64,000 nt of DNA from a virus (lineage: Duplodnaviria; Caudoviricetes): the IMG/VR virus record IMGVR_UViG_3300033120_001005, positions 10,322 through 74,321 of that record; one strand, written 5' to 3'. The translations under genes and the position numbers were made by a program. This document shows positions 14,163-39,295 of this stretch, piece by piece. The notes under the pieces are model-generated. The model ran no database searches. It saw nothing but the letters and a program-made list of their open reading frames with translations, and was not told where the DNA came from. Every line of letters starts with the position of its first letter. Position 1 is the first letter of the stretch.

Positions 14163-14720
14163 TTATTCTACTGTTTTTAAGTTTCTAAATAAAGTACTTT
14201 CGTTTCGCATTTGCACAGCTCGTTCTTGGAATTTTTCGAATCCGCTTAGTACTACTTTAAAGTTTTTGCTAATTTTACCTCGTCCGTCAATTTTCATTTC
14301 TAACTCGTTCTTTGTCTTAGAAAAAGCCGCAATGTTTTTGTTAACAATATCGTATTTCTTTTGTTGCTGAACATCGTCACTTATCTCAAGCGCTGACAAC
14401 ATATTTGATAATGACAACAATTTACTGTTATACAAATCTAACATGTAAATATCATGGTCATAATCTATTGCACGATACATAAAACTTGCTGTTATATATC
14501 TCTCGTCCAACTTAAACCCTTGCCACTTTTCCCCTATCACACTTTTCATAACCCTTTCTTCTCGTTGCTCAACACTCATTCGCCTAAACATACTCTGATT
14601 ATCGTATATCAATACGACAGAACGAAATTCAGGTTCATTAAGAACCTTGAATTCCGGTATGCCTTTCCAGTCGTTTCCATCAATACGACCTTCTTCTGTC
14701 ATTCTGAATAACATTCCCAT
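14163..14720 (-). CDS. hypothetical protein (positional candidate for small terminase)
   Basis: 185 aa, helical, upstream of terL; function inferred from position only. Confidence 0.4.
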   Translation of the reverse strand: MGMLFRMTEEGRIDGNDWKGIPEFKVLNEPEFRSVVLIYDNQSMFRRMSVEQREERVMKSVIGEKWQGFKLDERYITASFMYRAIDYDHDIYMLDLYNSKLLSLSNMLSALEISDDVQQQKKYDIVNKNIAAFSKTKNELEMKIDGRGKISKNFKVVLSGFEKFQERAVQMRNESTLFRNLKTVE

Positions 14721-23866: not shown

Positions 23867-25765
23867 ATGTTTCATGATGAATTTTACCCTACACCACCTG
23901 CAATAGCAAAACGGGTGTTGCAAAAAGTAAATTGCCATGGTAAAAATGTATTAGATCCTAGTTGTGGTAAAGGTGACATGGTAAAAACCCTAACAAGTAG
24001 GGATTTTTATTTTGAGTTCGAAAAGAATGGACATGGAATGTTTGTTACACCAAGTAATGTTTTTGGAATTGAGTTAATTCCTGATTTACAAGAAATATCA
24101 AAATCACATGGAATACGTATTTTAGGTGACGATTTTTTTGATACAGAAATTGATTTTGCTATTGATGTTATTTACATGAACCCACCTTTTAGCAATGGAG
24201 ATAAACATTTATTAAGAGCCTGGGATATTGTGGCGCCCGGTGGTACAGTTGTTTGTTTGTTAAACTTAGAAACTATTACCAATCCTTACAGCAAAACAAG
24301 GCAAATGCTTAATAAAATCATTGTGGCCAATGGTAAAGTTGAGAATTGGGGCAAATGTTTTAAAGATGCAGAAAAAACAACAAATGTTGATGTAGCTTGT
24401 GTTATCCTAAACAAACCAGAAGAAAAAGAACGTTTTAAATACAAAGGTGATTTTGAGAAAGAAAAAAAAATTAACCTTGATTCTACCGATTTAACAGATA
24501 CAGGTGGATTAGTCAAAATGGATTTAATTGATGCTTTGGTTGATGCTTATAGTAGTTCAAAAATAGAATTTGAAAATTTGTTAATTCAACTTAGTAAAAC
24601 AAATACTATTACAAATGCATTTGCAAGGCCAAATGGTTCAGGTAATATAAATATACCTGAAATTCTTAAAAACTACTCACATAACCCACAAACTACTTAT
24701 AATACATTTTGCGCAGATTTAAAACGTAAGGCGTGGGCTTACATTATTGAAAAAACCAAAATTAGAGAAATTGCAACTAGCAAACTTAAAAGCGATTTAG
24801 ATAAATTTCTTAATGAGCAATCAGATATAGCTTTTAATAAAAAAAACATTACAGCTGTTGTTGAAATGCTTTATCTTAATGGTGGAACATACATGTATGG
24901 TGCATTAGTTGATGTATTTGATAAGTTATGTTCTTATGATGCAGAAAACAAAACTCATTGGGAAGGCTGGAAAACTAATGACAGCTACAAAGTAAATTAT
25001 AAAGTTATTTATCCCTGGGGTGTAACTTTTGACAAAACTTACAGTTCACGTCCTTGGAGTTTTAATCACAGAAATGGTTGTTTTTTTGATGATTTAGACA
25101 TTGCCCTATGTTTTGTATCAGGTAACAAAATTGATAATATTCATGGCACCGAAAAAGCTATCAGAAATGCTATTGAACGTTCTAATAACAATTACGCTAA
25201 TTCAACAAAAGGAGAATCTACATTTTTTGAGTTTCAATTTTATAAAAAAGGTACAATTCACCTTTGGTTTAAAGATGAAGAAACTTGGACTAGATTTAAT
25301 GTTATGGCAGCTGAGGGCAAACATTGGTTACCACCTAACGATGTAAAACAAAAAGAAGCTGAAGAATGCGAAGCTGTAAAACGTAAAAAAAACGCTGAAT
25401 ACTCATGGATTAAGCGTGAAAAAGAACAAAATAAAAGAGAAAAATACCTAAAAGAACAAGAAATTAACTTTAATCCCCCTAACACAAGAGGTACTGAATT
25501 ACTAAAAAACCTTCTTGAATATATCGATCTTAGCAAAAATGAATATGCTAATGTTATTATTGTTAATTATGAAAAATTTAAACTTGAAATACTCGATAAC
25601 AGCGGAAGTTTAAAGGTTCAAATCTTTGATAACAACAATGATTTATTAGACTACAAATATTTTGATATCAGAGACGATAAAGATAAATTAATAGAACCAG
25701 CAAAAATATCAGCACAAATCAATTTATTTATAGAGGAACAAAATTATGAAAACAATCCAAGTTAA
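23867..25765 (+). CDS. N6-adenine DNA methyltransferase with DUF4942 domain
   Basis: FYPTP, motif I LDPSCGKG, motif IV MNPPF, GWKTNDSYKVN and EFQFYKKGTIH DUF4942-type segments. Confidence 0.8.
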   Translation: MFHDEFYPTPPAIAKRVLQKVNCHGKNVLDPSCGKGDMVKTLTSRDFYFEFEKNGHGMFVTPSNVFGIELIPDLQEISKSHGIRILGDDFFDTEIDFAIDVIYMNPPFSNGDKHLLRAWDIVAPGGTVVCLLNLETITNPYSKTRQMLNKIIVANGKVENWGKCFKDAEKTTNVDVACVILNKPEEKERFKYKGDFEKEKKINLDSTDLTDTGGLVKMDLIDALVDAYSSSKIEFENLLIQLSKTNTITNAFARPNGSGNINIPEILKNYSHNPQTTYNTFCADLKRKAWAYIIEKTKIREIATSKLKSDLDKFLNEQSDIAFNKKNITAVVEMLYLNGGTYMYGALVDVFDKLCSYDAENKTHWEGWKTNDSYKVNYKVIYPWGVTFDKTYSSRPWSFNHRNGCFFDDLDIALCFVSGNKIDNIHGTEKAIRNAIERSNNNYANSTKGESTFFEFQFYKKGTIHLWFKDEETWTRFNVMAAEGKHWLPPNDVKQKEAEECEAVKRKKNAEYSWIKREKEQNKREKYLKEQEINFNPPNTRGTELLKNLLEYIDLSKNEYANVIIVNYEKFKLEILDNSGSLKVQIFDNNNDLLDYKYFDIRDDKDKLIEPAKISAQINLFIEEQNYENNPS

Positions 25766-26207
25766 AGCTGAAGAATTAGTTGCAAAGTTTAATGGTGAAA
25801 AAGCATCAAATTTAAATGTTGATTTTTTATCTTCTTTTGAGCAATGGCTTATTCTTCAATTATTCGAAGAAACAGAAAAACGACAACAAACAATAAACAA
25901 AGTTGCAGAGTTTGAATTTACAACTACTGATTTAGACTCACAAATTACTATTACGGATACATGCTGGATTACAATTCCTCTTGATCCAACTGTTGAGCCT
26001 AATTTTGAAAAAATTGAAAAAGCAATTCAAGAATATGTTGACACACAACATTCAATTACAACATTGTCAGGTAATACATGGCAAATTGATGGTTTTGAAA
26101 GAACTGGAGCCGCAAAACTTGTAAGTAAAACAAGAAAAGCTGATGTTATTTTTGAAAGAACAGAAGAATTTGCAAGCAAAAATTACCCACTAGTTAACGA
26201 AAGATAA
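25746..26207 (+). CDS. hypothetical protein
   Basis: 153 aa, tiled. Confidence 0.55.
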   Translation: MKTIQVKAEELVAKFNGEKASNLNVDFLSSFEQWLILQLFEETEKRQQTINKVAEFEFTTTDLDSQITITDTCWITIPLDPTVEPNFEKIEKAIQEYVDTQHSITTLSGNTWQIDGFERTGAAKLVSKTRKADVIFERTEEFASKNYPLVNER

Positions 26208-26208
26208 A

Positions 26209-26544
26209 ATGAGCAAAAAGAAAAAAAATGGAGCAATTACTTTAAAGCAATTCCTTCACAAAAAAAAGAACCCGGTTTATTACGATTTGTTTGAATACCA
26301 TCAGCAACAACCTCAAAAAGTAAAACGTATAATTAAAAAGTTTGAAAAAAAACTTATTAATGGTATGTCTTATAAAGAAGTTGCTTTGTTTTTAGATGAA
26401 TTAGAAAAAATCAACTATACTTTTGAATACGGACTTGATTCAGAACCCTATGCGTTAAGACATAAATCAATACCATTATACCAAGTTTATGGTTTTAATG
26501 ACAATGCTATTGTTGATTTTCCTAGTGATTTTTTTGATCTTTAA
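26209..26544 (+). CDS. hypothetical protein
   Basis: YTFEYGLDSEPYALR motif, common in Bacteroidota phage hypotheticals. Confidence 0.55.
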   Translation: MSKKKKNGAITLKQFLHKKKNPVYYDLFEYHQQQPQKVKRIIKKFEKKLINGMSYKEVALFLDELEKINYTFEYGLDSEPYALRHKSIPLYQVYGFNDNAIVDFPSDFFDL

Positions 26545-26545
26545 T

Positions 26546-27055
26546 ATGAAAATTGAACACACAAAAATTCTTGAGTTACTTCAAATTATTGAATTTAAAG
26601 TTGATGGAATTATTGATGCAGTTAGATGTGGTGATGATGGTCACATATTTTCATGTATGAGTATGCGTGATGAATTAACAGAAGAAATCAAATTGTGGAA
26701 AGCTACTAACATGGCAAAACAAATTGAAAAAGAATCAATATCAGAAAAATATATCAGATATCAAAAAGCATCAGAAAAACAAGACGTTGGCCTTACTTTA
26801 CAAGAAAGCCTAGAGTTATTAATGGCTAATTTATATTTTTGGTTAAAAAGAAAAATTAAAAATGACGATAATATAGGAAATGTTACAAAAAGTGACCTTA
26901 GTAATTATCTTCAAGCTTATATTGAAAATGACACCAAAATGAGCAATGATATGTATTTTGGTACATACATTTATTCAACATTTGAAGTTCTCAAAGATGT
27001 TGAAGAAGAAATAATTAAAATGAGAGCAAAAAACCCTCAAACAACACTTTTATAA
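26546..27055 (+). CDS. hypothetical protein
   Basis: Start reassigned to ATG 26546 (MKIEH), directly after the previous stop. Confidence 0.55.
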   Translation: MKIEHTKILELLQIIEFKVDGIIDAVRCGDDGHIFSCMSMRDELTEEIKLWKATNMAKQIEKESISEKYIRYQKASEKQDVGLTLQESLELLMANLYFWLKRKIKNDDNIGNVTKSDLSNYLQAYIENDTKMSNDMYFGTYIYSTFEVLKDVEEEIIKMRAKNPQTTLL

Positions 27056-27057
27056 TT

Positions 27058-27237
27058 ATGGCTTGGATAATTATTTTAAATTACAACGACAAATCTGCTA
27101 GTGTAGTTGAAGTTCCTGAGAATTTACAAGATGCTCAGGAATATTTAGAAAACAATCATGGTTTTATAGAATCATCTATGCATTACATGGATTTAGATAT
27201 TGATAAATCTATTGAGTTTATCCCTTTATTCCAGTAA
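27058..27237 (+). CDS. small hypothetical protein (59 aa)
   Basis: Not in the track; MAWIIILNYNDKSASVVEVPENLQDAQEYLENNHGF...IPLFQ fills the gap. Confidence 0.55.
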   Translation: MAWIIILNYNDKSASVVEVPENLQDAQEYLENNHGFIESSMHYMDLDIDKSIEFIPLFQ

Positions 27238-27257
27238 AATAATAACGTCAGCCCCTT

Positions 27258-27279
27258 TTTTGCCAATGCAATGTTAGTG
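27258..27279 (+). repeat. right half of an attC-like site (L'-spacer-R')
   Basis: TTTTGCCAAT-GCAAT-GTTAGTG; same L' and 5-nt spacing as the site at 27939-27960. Confidence 0.5.
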
Positions 27280-27733
27280 GCTGCCGTTTTCACAATAATG
27301 CCTTGAGCGGCTTTGTAAAACTCACAAAACAACAATATGTCAGGAGATGTAAAATTTGAAGGCACACAAGAAGAATGGGATGCCTTAGTAAAGAAAAACA
27401 ATGCCGATGCTTTGGCGAAACAAGATGCTTTTTTAGAACGCTTAATCAATGAAGAAAAAGAATTAGGCGAAAAAATTGTAGGCTTGAACAAAGGATTGCA
27501 AAGTGATGGTTTCGCTCAAAAAGTTGGCGATTACCAATTTGAGTTACTGAATTTACAGCATGGTGCTATGATTACTTATAGACGTGTTTTAATTATGAGA
27601 ATTAAAGACTTGACGAAGTAACTCATTGTGGTTCGTAGGATGCTCGGTGTCGGGTGTCCTACGGTTGCCACTAACCTTGCAGATACACGCTGTAAGCATT
27701 GGATTGAGGGGAGGGAATAGCGTGTATGTGCTG
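27274..27733 (+). mobile_element. integron-like gene cassette 1 (crAss001_48-like gene plus attC-like site)
   Basis: Starts G|TTAGTGGC and its R'' is GCCACTAAC, so circularisation gives a perfect 9-bp complement; single ORF; GC-rich flanks. Confidence 0.6.
27337..27621 (+). CDS. crAss001_48-related protein
   Basis: FLERLINEEKEL..KI..L...L.S..F......Q.ELL..Q..AM..Y..VL..RI pattern. Confidence 0.7.
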   Translation: MSGDVKFEGTQEEWDALVKKNNADALAKQDAFLERLINEEKELGEKIVGLNKGLQSDGFAQKVGDYQFELLNLQHGAMITYRRVLIMRIKDLTK

Positions 27734-27739
27734 TTAGCA
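27669..27739 (+). repeat. attC-like site (71 bp)
   Basis: CACTAAC...GCAGATACACGCT / AGCGTGTATGTGC...GTTAGCA imperfect palindrome, left arm 2 nt longer. Confidence 0.65.
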
Positions 27740-27954
27740 GATGTATTAAATTTATCAAAATGAAAAGAAGTTTTATTAAAGATTGCTTATTCTTTCAAAG
27801 CAAAGAACCGCTACACAAATTTTTAGGTGTGTTTGTTTGGTTAAACATTTTGCAAATGTGTTTAGCCATTATCAACTTGTGGTCAAAATATTTCCACTAA
27901 CAGCTTGACTGGCAAGAGCTCAAAACGAAGCATTTGAATTTTGCCAATCAAAAG
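27734..27954 (+). mobile_element. integron-like gene cassette 2
   Basis: Bounded by G|TTAGC and G|TTATA; one 46-aa ORF whose TAA lies inside R''. Confidence 0.5.
27760..27900 (+). CDS. 46-aa membrane peptide
   Basis: Not in the track; MKRSFIKDCLFFQSKEPLHKFLGVFVWLNILQMCLAIINLWSKYFH. Confidence 0.5.
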   Translation: MKRSFIKDCLFFQSKEPLHKFLGVFVWLNILQMCLAIINLWSKYFH

Positions 27955-27960
27955 TTATAA
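27895..27960 (+). repeat. attC-like site (66 bp)
   Basis: CACTAAC-AGCTT-GACTGGCA...TGCCAAT-CAAAA-GTTATAA; 7/5/8 and 7/5/7 box geometry plus inner TCAAA/TTTGA stem. Confidence 0.65.
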
Positions 27961-28039
27961 GTATTTAATCAGAAAAAAAACAAACAGTATAATAAAAGTT
28001 TAAATTATCAGTATAATCAAAAAATTATTATTTAAAATT

Positions 28040-28924
28040 ATGACACAATCATTCAAAACATTAGGCGATTTACAGTTTGAAAAATTTAATGTTAAAGACG
28101 AAACCAGGCCTTCTGTTGGCTTACCATTTGAAACTTTTATTGGTACTCAGCATATTTACAAAGGAAATACACCAATTCCTTTTAGTGGTGCCCAAATTTT
28201 AGAAGGTGTTTTCCGTAAAATCAATGAATTTATTCCTGACCAAAACAGAAGCTGGGGAAATATTTTTGTTTACAAAAGCCAATTTAATGCGCCTAATTAC
28301 GTTAAAAAGCTTACAGGTAACGAACCACCTGAAATTAAACAATTAAGCCAGCTAACACCTATTAGCGACTTAAATTTTCCACGTTTCATAGGCACCATTG
28401 ATTTAATTGGTGATGGTGAACATACAGAACGTATTGCTATTAAATGTGACGACAACAAAAGCATTCAGCTTGCAGTTGGTTTAAATGTAAATGTTTGTTC
28501 AAATTTTACATTGTTTGGCAACAATTTGTTAAACACAAACACCCGCGAAAAAAAAGATTACAACTGGATTATTGAACAAGTTGAAAAATATTGCCGTTCA
28601 ATTGAAGATAAATTCAAATACGATTTGGATATTATCAATAAAATGCAAAACATTACTATTGGAACTGAGGAACGAGACAGATTTTTAGGTGATTTGTTAA
28701 TGAAATACGAAACTAAAGATGAAGTGTTGCCAGTAACAATGATTAATGATTTTAGCCGTCAGTTAAAACTAACTGAGGTTAACAACGTATGGCAATTAAT
28801 TAACGCTGGTACTGAAAAAATCCGTTTTGATTCTAATACTGGTGACAGTATTTTAGAAACAATGAACCGTTTTGCCAACCATACAGCTGAGTCATACGAA
28901 ATCCCTTATGAGTTTAGTTTATAA
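28040..28924 (+). CDS. DUF932-like protein
   Basis: SIQLAVGLNVNVCSNF motif; C-terminal NVWQLINAGTE. Confidence 0.6.
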   Translation: MTQSFKTLGDLQFEKFNVKDETRPSVGLPFETFIGTQHIYKGNTPIPFSGAQILEGVFRKINEFIPDQNRSWGNIFVYKSQFNAPNYVKKLTGNEPPEIKQLSQLTPISDLNFPRFIGTIDLIGDGEHTERIAIKCDDNKSIQLAVGLNVNVCSNFTLFGNNLLNTNTREKKDYNWIIEQVEKYCRSIEDKFKYDLDIINKMQNITIGTEERDRFLGDLLMKYETKDEVLPVTMINDFSRQLKLTEVNNVWQLINAGTEKIRFDSNTGDSILETMNRFANHTAESYEIPYEFSL

Positions 28925-29312
28925 GGACGAATTTTCGGTTGACGATGCTTATTTATTAGTAAAAAAAGCCCTCACTTTGGCAAAGCCTAAGTGGGGGTTA
29001 ATTGAAGATGAGCGCGATTTTGAGGCTATTTTTATTTCTAAACTGGATATGATAGTTAAATCAAGGATAAATCTTTCACCACAACTTAAATTTAGCGTTG
29101 CTGATTTAACTAAAATGAAAGTTTTACTATTTGCTGATGTTATATGTGGAGTGTGTTTAACTATTTCAGAAAAGAATTATATGTTTTCCGACAATACAGT
29201 ACGTTGTGGTTATGCAGCAATTCATTTTCTTTGTATTCAAAACACAAAAGGTCGCGAAATGACTCAAAGAATATCAGATATAATAAAAAAAGAAAAATAC
29301 ATTTTAAACTAA
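28908..29312 (+). CDS. hypothetical protein
   Basis: Start reassigned to ATG 28908 (MSLVYKDE). Confidence 0.5.
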   Translation: MSLVYKDEFSVDDAYLLVKKALTLAKPKWGLIEDERDFEAIFISKLDMIVKSRINLSPQLKFSVADLTKMKVLLFADVICGVCLTISEKNYMFSDNTVRCGYAAIHFLCIQNTKGREMTQRISDIIKKEKYILN

Positions 29313-29767
29313 TGAATATAGCAATCAAACTAACAGAACAAAACATCAATCCGGACTCATTGTATGGTAAAATTAACCGCGCTTTTGAGTTTGATTTAAA
29401 CCAGATAGCAATTGTATTAGATGAACTAGAAAAAGATGATGTAAAAGGATTTGTTGGAGTATTAGACTTTAGGAAAGCATCATTTTTAATTATGCCTAGT
29501 TATTTAACAGTTAAGCCTCAAAAAATCAAAAAAATGATTGTTGGTAACAGAATAATTGAAGAAACGATTCATTTACGTACTGAATATTTAAAATCAGAAC
29601 ACGTTAAAAATCGTGCTTTATTGTGGCTTGATAAATTTTCTGATATGCCTGCCAAATCTTATTTTGTTCCTTGCATTATTGCTAATACAGAATTAGGCTG
29701 GTTATGGTGTACAAATACAAATTTGTCAGTGCCGCTTGAAATAATCGAAATGATTGAAAATTATTAA
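29312..29767 (+). CDS. hypothetical protein
   Basis: Start reassigned to ATG 29312 (MNIAIKL), overlapping the previous stop. Confidence 0.5.
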   Translation: MNIAIKLTEQNINPDSLYGKINRAFEFDLNQIAIVLDELEKDDVKGFVGVLDFRKASFLIMPSYLTVKPQKIKKMIVGNRIIEETIHLRTEYLKSEHVKNRALLWLDKFSDMPAKSYFVPCIIANTELGWLWCTNTNLSVPLEIIEMIENY

Positions 29768-29770
29768 ACT

Positions 29771-30109
29771 ATGGATATAAAAACAGATAAAAAACCAAGT
29801 AGAAATGTTTGGTGGTGCAATGAAAGGTTTACAATTTTACCTTTATTTACATACAAAAAAGCAGATTACCACAATACAACAAAATTTACCTTTAGATGGT
29901 TAATTTTAAAGTTGTGGACTATTGATGCATTTGATTTTGAATTTGCTGCATTTTTAGATAATCATTTTGGTATTGGCTTTTCTATTACATTGCCATATAC
30001 AAGAATTGTTGTATCAATTGAACCAAGGCCAAAAATAAGTGAATGGATTCAAAGTAAATTATGGCGCAAACCAGCTTCAATGAGAAAAAATGGCCGTACC
30101 ATATCCTAA
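29771..30109 (+). CDS. hypothetical aromatic-rich protein
   Basis: 112 aa, tiled. Confidence 0.55.
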   Translation: MDIKTDKKPSRNVWWCNERFTILPLFTYKKADYHNTTKFTFRWLILKLWTIDAFDFEFAAFLDNHFGIGFSITLPYTRIVVSIEPRPKISEWIQSKLWRKPASMRKNGRTIS

Positions 30110-32584: not shown

Positions 32585-32893
32585 ATGACTAAACTAAGTG
32601 AGACACAAAGAAAAAAACTTGTTAATAAAACTTTTGGTGTAGTTCAGGCTATAATTGGGCTTGGATTACCTGTTGATATTGGCATTTTAAGATTCGAAAC
32701 ATTTAACTCTCAATTCATACAAAAAAGACAAAGAAAAGGACCTAAAAAATCATTTAAATCAACCTATGACAAAGATTTGCTAATGAATGCAAAATTGTTA
32801 AAAAAAGGGGCTTATGGTAAGTTCACCGTAGGTAAAATCAGCATAACAGAAAAAGAAATAAAAAAATCAATTCAAATGTTGACAACTAGATAA
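32585..32893 (+). CDS. basic hypothetical protein (possible DNA binder)
   Basis: Lys-rich, 102 aa. Confidence 0.5.
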   Translation: MTKLSETQRKKLVNKTFGVVQAIIGLGLPVDIGILRFETFNSQFIQKRQRKGPKKSFKSTYDKDLLMNAKLLKKGAYGKFTVGKISITEKEIKKSIQMLTTR

Positions 32894-32924
32894 TTTGTAT
32901 ATTAATAATTACATTATATATTTG
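32894..32924 (+). promoter_or_regulatory. Bacteroidota sigma70 consensus promoter
   Basis: TTTG (32894-97), N19, TATATTTG (32917-24); exact consensus. Confidence 0.75.
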
Positions 32925-32943
32925 TCAAAGCAAACTAAACATT

Positions 32944-39101: not shown

Positions 39102-39295
39102 GGTAAGTATCATCTTTCCTTATCCAATTATTATTTTCAATTACTTTGAAGAAATATTGTTGCTTAAAAAATGTAAAACCCTTCTTAATGAAGGGGTTTA
39201 TTTTTTTGGCTATAATTTAGAAGAATTGGATTACAGTGTATTTGCTGAGTTTCAAAATTATCCTAGAATTGTATATAAAATAGAAATAGAAAGTA

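Follow-up and report, generated by a model that had tools for sequence, protein, structure and literature searches.

An integron-like cassette array of probable non-IntI type in a phage genome, with two of its three sites degenerate

Introduction

Integrons are the textbook case of site-specific gene capture. A short stretch of a phage genome in IMG/VR (record IMGVR_UViG_3300033120_001005, 74 kb, 59% complete) holds an array of similar design, and the record encodes no integrase. We analyzed 64 kb of this record, referred to here as the window, and all coordinates below are window positions unless stated otherwise. A preliminary description, made from the sequence alone, had taken positions 27258-27960 for an integron-like cassette array in a crAss-like phage, with cassettes gained or shed through IntI-type recombination by a host enzyme. 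Our follow-up indicates that the integron-like reading was largely right, that the array is not of the IntI type, and that two of its three sites are degenerate. The stretch from 27244 to 27960 is probably a small, partly eroded two-cassette mobile array belonging to an integron-like system that is widespread in the chromosomes and phages of Bacteroidota, with a mechanism that we infer from comparative sequence data.

Palindromes and cassette ends in related phages

The three GTT core sites of the preliminary description (27273, 27733, and 27954) can be read directly in the sequence, and each of the two intervals between them holds a single open reading frame (ORF); ORF1 and ORF2 are the sole sense ORFs there. 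The first unit, cassette 1, begins with GTTAGTGGC (27273-27281), which is, as had been noticed, the exact complement of GCCACTAAC (27667-27675) at its other end, and the inverted repeat is longer than these 9 nt (18/21 matches between 27267-27287 and 27661-27681). A degenerate 21-mer made from the inverted repeat led to four other viral contigs in which the upstream element (window 27244-27324) is 85.6-97.5% identical and the downstream hairpin with the terminal sequence GGTTGCCACTAAC is 81-98% identical, while the intervening gene is different each time (retrieved loci and genomes carry L and G numbers, respectively). Hairpin A, the stem-loop near the 3′ end of cassette 1, is together with that 3′ end 98-100% identical to L008, and again the genes between differ. 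Since these flanks recur at 81-100% identity around unrelated genes in other viral contigs, cassette 1 is to all appearances a genuine mobile unit.

Two 18-mers extended the set to about 46 distinct viral contigs with G+C contents of 30-43%. The same palindrome is joined, immediately before GTT(AG), to at least six unrelated right-hand sequences and, immediately after AAC, to at least six different left-hand ones, and the cassette type of the window occurs in five different left contexts. Hence the breakpoints among relatives, which the preliminary description had singled out for comparison, are sharp and fall exactly before GTTAG and after AAC. Whole cassettes are joined at these two points, and cargo is also swapped at ORF borders.

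The full phage palindrome is imperfect and measures about 118 nt; read from its ends inwards, it consists of an R box (CTAAC/GTTAG), an unpaired spacer of 6 vs 3 nt, and an 18-bp L stem (GCATTGGCGA.G / T.TTGCCAATGC) capped by a variable loop. In an alignment of 28 palindromes, 96% of cells were paired, as opposed to 34-48% when the partners were slid; eight pairs showed compensatory change, two were invariant G.T pairs, and none of 500 shuffles matched the observed values. A covariance model of the palindrome (R1) scored true members at 30-146 bits, and other phages carry arrays of 5-8 same-strand sites per locus by this model. The cassettes themselves show a further level of pairing. In 65 cassette types (16 from phages, 49 from bacteria) the 15 nt that start with GTTAG are complementary to the 15 nt that end with CTAAC, over distances of 200-3,300 nt, and the inner 10 nt of these terminal repeats vary between cassette types and covary. 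Position 11 is a G.T pair in 14/16 phage and 40/49 bacterial types, with the G always at the GTTAG end. The match between the 5′ end of a cassette and its own R″ box, from which integration of a circle had been deduced for cassette 1, is therefore a property of all 65 types.

The palindrome is also asymmetric, with three G.T wobbles that become A.C mismatches on the opposite strand and with one arm 3 nt longer than the other. In the orientation that has the G.T wobbles, the genes are sense in 15 of the 16 phage types and antisense in 45 of the 49 bacterial types, such that the well-folding strand is the sense strand in phages and the bottom strand in bacteria. An asymmetry whose polarity stays fixed with respect to the element, although the genes change direction, belongs to the DNA level and is independent of transcription; this favors a recombination site made of folded DNA over an RNA element. 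Our reading is thus that the junction palindromes are putative recombination sites. In 27240-27300, 27620-27760, and 27890-27960 a consensus scan gave nothing that resembled a terminator, and promoter-like hits in the same type of scan were no commoner than in shuffled sequence.

Bacterial arrays and the linked recombinase

More than 120 genome contigs contain an 18-mer from the short arm, and almost all of them are from Bacteroidota, including Chitinophagaceae, Flavobacteriaceae, Sphingobacteriales, and others. Some bacterial matches to the 18-mer TTGCCAATGCAATGTTAG were chance hits within coding sequences for glutamate dehydrogenase (..VANAMLDQG) and UDP-glucose dehydrogenase (..VANAMLATK), and were excluded; such matches in dehydrogenase genes were seen in L058, L060, L088, L055, L079, and others. 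The bacterial palindrome is a 182-nt version with the same arms, arranged in Chitinophagaceae as same-strand arrays at 1-3 kb spacing; in one family, 24 of the 61 genomes sampled have it. One 7.3-Mb genome (G020) gave 126 first-look candidates for the 182-nt palindrome over many contigs, and the 13 that were scored all matched (13/13); this genome may hold a very large cassette set.

In six cases (L092, L154, L156, L176, G063:C33, and G071:C20) the arrays adjoin a gene for a tyrosine recombinase (PF13495 plus PF00589) that is co-directional with the cassettes. The protein has an N-terminal extension of 90-150 amino acids and only about 20 residues where the integron integrase VchIntIA has a stretch of about 65 residues with the IntI-specific insertion. 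It scored 197-212 bits against the XerA/integron-integrase model (cut-off 220) and about 180 bits, in two pieces, against the integron integrase model TIGR02249 (cut-off 265). Moreover, TIGR02249 remained below its cut-off for all proteins in five of five array-bearing Bacteroidota genomes. The assignment to the IntI type in the preliminary description is therefore not supported, and since the array-linked recombinase lacks the insertion that defines IntI, the system is integron-like rather than a classical integron. At 120-200 nt downstream of the recombinase (L092, L154, L156, and L176) lies a conserved attI-like motif ending in GTGTAATAACATAAAT-N5-6, followed directly by the GTTAG of the first cassette with complementary ends.

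Phage cargo was absent from the sampled chromosomal arrays of Chitinophagaceae, and its sole matches were three contigs of metagenome-assembled genomes with phage-type palindromes. By eye, the genes around one bacterial array (L186, G005:C12, 2500-15000) look defence-like and include, for example, two nucleotidyltransferase-like proteins.

The array in the window

The features of the window array are listed in Table 1.

Table 1. Features of the cassette array and of the elements inside it (window coordinates).
Feature	Start	End	Strand	Description
Site 1 (half-site)	27244	27272	+	Short 3′ arm of a junction palindrome (ends in CAGCCCCTTTTTTGCCAATGCAAT); ends at the crossover point before GTT 27273
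Cassette 1	27273	27675	+	GTTAG to CTAAC, 403 nt, single gene
Leader RNA pseudoknot, H-type	27300	27324	+	S1 GCC/GGC, S2 UGAG/CUCA; 12 nt 5′ of the ORF1 start codon
ORF1	27337	27621	+	94 amino acids, crAss001_48-related protein, cargo of cassette 1; Pfam PF21825 (53.3 bits), phrog_774
Hairpin A	27628	27671	+	19-bp stem-loop, G.U-rich, immediately 3′ of the cargo stop codon; overlaps the 3′ terminal repeat
Site 2	27676	27732	+	Decayed junction palindrome; L-box half AAGCATTGG retained, as are AAC and GTT on either side
Cassette 2 (weak)	27733	27901	+	From GTTAGCAGATGTATT to AATATTTCCACTAAC, contains ORF2
ORF2	27760	27900	+	46 amino acids, hydrophobic, cargo of cassette 2
Site 3	27902	27953	+	Compact divergent palindrome (with GACTGGCAAGA and TTTTGCCAATCAAAA), hairpin fold; ends before GTT 27954

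Site 1 lacks the corresponding 5′ arm, and what is left is identical to the 3′ arm of the full palindromes in L007-L009; together with the leader that follows, it is 97.5% identical to L009 over 81 nt. This 3′ arm alone gives the top R1 match in the window (17.7 bits, E 0.065), and the first 10.4 kb of the record contain no R1 match. The ends of cassette 1 (27273-27287 and 27661-27675) form 13/15 Watson-Crick pairs, and the remaining two positions are a T.T (10) and the G.T (11). In other viral contigs the same ends surround at least eight different cargos. Both site 1 and cassette 1 are above chance, as the same sequences are found again in dozens of other viral contigs. The ends of cassette 2 form 11/15 pairs and have, like those of cassette 1, G.T at position 11 and T.T at position 10. 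Its ORF2 had no homologue in any retrieved locus and no Pfam or PHROG match.

Site 2 has lost the partner arm GCCAATGC and has a local 11-bp stem in its place; it scores 9.7 bits with R1 (E 4.4), and the palindromes that follow the same cassette type in other phages score 32-73 bits. Site 3 keeps an L′ half, TTTTGCCAAT, identical to the family consensus, and its R1 score of 13.4 bits (E 0.64) is not significant. The two attC-like hairpins drawn in the preliminary description fold as proposed, with a left arm 2 nt longer than the right, but they are decayed or divergent copies with family-model scores at noise level, and as single-stranded DNA their stability is modest (z -2.1 to -2.4 vs shuffled). 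Other details of that description agree with ours: the upstream half-site shares TTTTGCCAAT-N5-GTTA with site 3 (27258 and 27939), and the stop codon of cassette 2 lies in R″, with the TAA of ORF2 (27898-27900) falling within CCACTAAC. The latter sequence occurs three times in the 64 kb, with 0.93 occurrences expected, and all three are inside 27273-27901. The window core is CACTAAC/GTTAGTG, and the strict form RYYYAAC/GTTRRRY is not always kept in the family. The window therefore holds one intact cassette within an eroded two-cassette array, and this copy may no longer be mobile.

Cargo and expression elements of cassette 1

In the cassette type to which cassette 1 belongs, a 5′ leader of about 60 nt and a 3′ trailer of about 55 nt are constant and the cargo varies. 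Homologues of ORF1 with 77-92% identity occur in unrelated viral contigs that lack the flanking elements, and the nucleotide similarity ends at the ORF borders. An AlphaFold model of the ORF1 protein is a long helical hairpin (predicted local distance difference test score, pLDDT, 88); a fold search returned only generic helical hairpins and coiled coils at E of 1 or more, there was no PDB sequence match, and BLASTP gave no similarity to an Acb2/Tad1-type cargo. Elsewhere the same frame holds a Tad2-like protein (L009), Acb2/Tad1-hairpin proteins (L018, L021, and L023), a RyR-domain protein (L010), and a crAss001_48-family protein (the window and L032). It is probably a slot for anti-defence genes, and because Tad2-like and Acb2/Tad1-like genes occupy it in other phages, the position of ORF1 makes it a candidate anti-defence gene. 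Other phage cassettes carry three N6/N4 DNA methylases, one C5 DNA methylase, an HNH/NUMOD4 endonuclease, and a metallophosphatase.

The preliminary description was right about the one-gene cassette but had overlooked two RNA-type elements inside it. The leader can form an H-type pseudoknot, GCC-U-UGAG-C-GGC-UUUGUAAAA-CUCA, and six variants in relatives preserve both helices by compensatory changes (S1: GCC/GGC, ACUUC/GGAGU, AGUC/GACU, and AGGU/ACCU; S2: UGAG/CUCA, UGGU/ACCA, UGGA/UCCA, and UGGG/CCCA). It has no Rfam match and may serve in translational control or act as a small riboswitch. Hairpin A is far stronger than the hairpins of the preliminary description (RNA fold of 27615-27765, -51.8 kcal/mol, z -4.2) and is 81-100% identical in 16 other viral loci, where its distal stem is variable yet paired. 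The base of this hairpin (GUGG/CCAC) competes with the terminal stem of the cassette, and no U-tract follows it. In our reading, leader and hairpin A would be expression elements that travel inside the cassette.

The junction core also contains an ATG (CA-ATG-TTA-G), which in the window starts an 11-codon mini-ORF, MLVAAVFTIMP (27271-27306). This ATG is the true start codon of the cargo in L037, L038, L039, L045, and L049 (methylases, HNH endonuclease, phosphatase), whose proteins begin with ML(G/A/V). In some first sites (L022, L031, L042 at 9121 of the reverse complement, L041 at 8010 of the reverse complement, and L025) the 5′ arm is missing, and the site is embedded in a short coding leader. 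Such leaders, MENDNLKTESNNANVL and MDESLIEKQNGNFANTV, each run in frame into the LGAV.. of the cassette, an arrangement reminiscent of class 1 integrons, where attI1 provides a start of translation. A shared N-terminal peptide (..FFANAMLVAAV..) was considered as the source of the conserved core and dropped, given that the frame is lost past MLxAV and the same DNA is antisense to bacterial genes.

Genomic context

The record encodes a portal protein, a large terminase, a major head protein, helicases, and a 2,979-amino-acid protein. The closest named relatives of the terminase are crAss-like phages only, at 23% identity, so the designation crAss-like is plausible but distant. The array is flanked by a gene for a 632-amino-acid DNA methyltransferase-like protein (phrog_32703, phrog_6263; 23867-25765) and by one for a 294-amino-acid protein with a weak DUF932 match (28040-28924); a pattern search of IMG/VR found no relatives of either protein. 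The INPHARED phage collection contained no nucleotide match to a 2.8-kb region around the array or to a full palindrome. Searches against Rfam gave no family for 26000-29000 (E up to 10) or for five related loci (E up to 0.1), and the window has no tRNA or tmRNA. As previously noticed, the region is GC-richer than its surroundings (G+C 0.35-0.405 across 27200-27800 vs about 0.26-0.31).

Proposed mechanism and alternative explanations

Cassettes of the system run from GTTAG to CTAAC, with their first and last 15 nt complementary, and are set apart by imperfect palindromes of about 60-190 nt, in size classes of about 60-80, 118, and 182 nt. In the mechanism that we favor, palindrome and cassette ends would fold into a long hairpin on the strand where three conserved mismatches read G.T; a tyrosine recombinase would act on this hairpin, with strand exchange between AAC and GTT, and cassettes would leave as circles and insert. 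In bacteria the enzyme would be a Xer/IntI-like recombinase without the IntI insertion, encoded next to an attI-like site, and a phage without a recombinase of its own would depend on the enzyme of its host. A second route may exist, in which ordinary homologous recombination inside the conserved cassette ends swaps the cargo.

Several observations weigh against this mechanism or against the mobility of the window copy. Sites 2 and 3 alone are not above chance (9.7 and 13.4 bits vs 30-146 for true members), and with scores at the noise level of the family model, the window copy is possibly an immobile fossil. We saw no recombination event and found no close relative of the window phage with an empty site. 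The absence of a tyrosine recombinase from the window, already stated in the preliminary description, extends to the whole 74-kb record in the state in which it is available, 59% complete (no PF00589 match); eight of the ten related viral records, some of them 95-100% complete, also lack such an enzyme, such that a host enzyme would have to act in trans. The association between palindrome and recombinase at the genome level is moderate, with both present in 12 of the 61 genomes, the palindrome only in 12, the recombinase only in 9, and neither in 28. Relative to the bacterial genes, the longer arm is on the side opposite to that in classical attC sites. Breakpoints of cargo swaps lie at ORF borders, near 27325 and 27622, and not between G and TT, and hence this second layer of exchange fits homologous recombination between conserved cassette ends. 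Finally, the sense-strand RNA features (the start codon in the core, the leader pseudoknot, and hairpin A) indicate that part of the conservation in phages serves expression.

The last two points also feature in a different explanation, by which the hairpins and palindromes would be RNA-level regulatory modules (terminators, leaders, or processing sites of early transcripts) that are shuffled by homologous recombination without a site-specific recombinase, similar to the promoter/stem-loop elements of T4-type phages discussed below. Their conservation would then do no more than provide homology that travels with the modules. Hairpin A is G.U-rich and directly follows a stop codon, the pseudoknot covaries, several cargos do start at the core ATG, the phages lack a recombinase, and cargo of the cassette 1 type is exchanged at ORF borders, all of which such modules would account for. 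We nonetheless consider this explanation unlikely, given that the same asymmetry of G.T wobbles and longer arm is found on the antisense strand of bacterial genes, that the cassette-specific 15-nt end pairing covaries in 65 types, that both junctions are sharp with just five conserved nt on the cassette side, that arrays adjoin a tyrosine recombinase and an attI-like site, and that no terminator-like site was scored at the hairpins. Less probable still is a classical cluster of attC sites lacking an integrase (CALIN) that is recombined by a canonical host IntI, as the preliminary description had it. The inverse AAC/GTT cores match the classical GCCTAAC...GTTAGGC, the palindrome arms are unequal, and IntI1 inserted into attI1 a site of related architecture, attC2 of Polaribacter phage P12002L (PMC9892861). 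On the other hand, the better example of the architecture, P12002L attC1, failed with IntI1, TIGR02249 was below cut-off in all five array-bearing genomes tested, the array-linked recombinase has about 20 residues in place of about 65, and integrons are almost absent from Bacteroidetes according to IntegronFinder 2.0 (PMC9024848).

It is also very improbable that the gene of cassette 1 is the passenger of a miniature transposon, mobilized between terminal inverted repeats by a transposase whose gene would lie outside the unit. ORF1 does lie within an imperfect inverted repeat of 21 nt, and the unit is found in many genomic contexts. However, no target-site duplication flanks 27273-27675, no recurrent transposase was seen nearby, and the units form ordered arrays on one strand in which each invariably adjoins a palindrome or an attI-like site. 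Ends bound by a transposase are normally constant within a family, and here the inner 10 nt of the repeats differ by cassette type and covary. The integron-like system thus remains the explanation that we prefer, and the logic of integron-type cassettes in the preliminary description, namely single-gene units, junctions between AAC and GTT, self-complementary cassette ends, and a phage without an integrase, is retained in it.

Significance

The results point to a system parallel to integrons in Bacteroidota and their phages, with an associated recombinase that lacks a feature thought essential for handling folded attC sites. Our literature search found no paper describing this non-IntI system. 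There is perhaps an even chance that the window represents the phage arm of an undescribed, Bacteroidota-wide system of gene capture, in which phages trade anti-defence genes by means of a Xer-like host enzyme, in mirror image to defence cassettes of the bacteria. Such a system would combine a Xer-like recombinase without the IntI insertion, single-stranded folded sites with a G.T strand code, and a 15-bp closing stem, and the anti-defence genes would be DNA methylases and Tad2-like, Acb2/Tad1-like, and crAss001_48-family genes. If this is true, the definition of integrons would be widened, a second natural model of single-strand hairpin recombination would be available, and swaps of anti-defence genes as precise units by virulent phages without a recombinase would be explained. 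For the window phage, the crAss001_48-family gene is flagged as a candidate for anti-defence, and the pseudoknot is a separate candidate, for translational control.

Comparison with known systems

CALINs have been reported in virulent phages, one of which is Polaribacter phage P12002L; its cargo includes a methylase, and of its attC sites, described as "divergent", attC2 recombined with IntI1 and attC1 did not (Qi et al., 2023, PMC9892861). This integrase-less cluster is the closest published case: as here, a virulent phage of Bacteroidota has an integrase-less row of single-gene cassettes with a DNA methylase among the cargo. In P12002L (L189), our end-pairing scan found the methylase cassette at 29237-30011 of that genome with complementary ends (GTTAGGCAC and GTGCCTAAC). 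The published P12002L_attC1 oligo ends with GCCGTTTTAGCCATT followed at the junction by GTTAGGC, which is the site upstream of this cassette, with the same spacer of 6 vs 3 nt. The two published oligos are thus the two borders of one methylase cassette, which gives the published case the same architecture. Further R1 matches lie at 32789-32931, 39114-39251, and 14496-14633 of P12002L. Its sites nevertheless belong to a different sequence family, with just 22-28 bits by R1. The original work treats the sites as classical attC sites and the two ends as "divergent attC sites"; cassette-specific pairing of the 15-nt ends, a strand code of G.T wobbles, linkage to a recombinase other than IntI, and occurrence throughout Bacteroidota are not described there (PMC9892861).

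Classical integrons, including sedentary chromosomal ones and the "inverted integrase" group (Cury et al., 2016, PMC4889954; Ghaly et al., 2021, PMC8618304), resemble the arrays described here in that they have a tyrosine recombinase and an attI-like site, and in that their cassettes, most of which hold one gene, follow each other in order on the same strand. They also have AAC...GTT cores with a junction between G and TT, folded strand-asymmetric sites that are uniform per lineage around varied cargo, and a bottom strand that folds best in bacteria. In contrast, the recombinase here lacks the IntI insertion, has an N-terminal extension of 90-150 amino acids, and is co-directional with the cassettes; strand choice is apparently set by G.T wobbles and by a 3-nt longer arm on the other side; the R stem reaches 15 bp; and phage genes lie on the folding strand, the mirror of the bacterial arrangement.

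The promoter/stem-loop elements (PeSLs) of T4-type phages are sigma-70 early promoters plus terminators that recombine homologously (Arbiol et al., 2010, PMC2839356; Comeau et al., 2014, PMC4122927). Likewise, these bracket small accessory genes in plastic regions that undergo modular shuffling (PMC2839356, PMC4122927), and cassette 1, whose leader and hairpin A form a constant frame, behaves in a similar manner. Conversely, the scans gave no terminator-like sites and promoter-like hits at the shuffled level, so that a PeSL-type promoter and terminator at each gene border were not found, and the long palindromes here are common to bacterial arrays, linked to a tyrosine recombinase, and polar at the DNA level.

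A last comparison is with the pdif modules of Acinetobacter plasmids, in which 28-bp double-stranded dif-like XerC/XerD sites alternate in orientation around gene modules. These resemble the present arrays in placing gene modules between inversely oriented sites and, under the mechanism proposed here, in using a Xer-type recombinase encoded elsewhere, whereas the sites described here are hairpin-forming palindromes of 60-190 nt and every cassette has complementary ends of its own.

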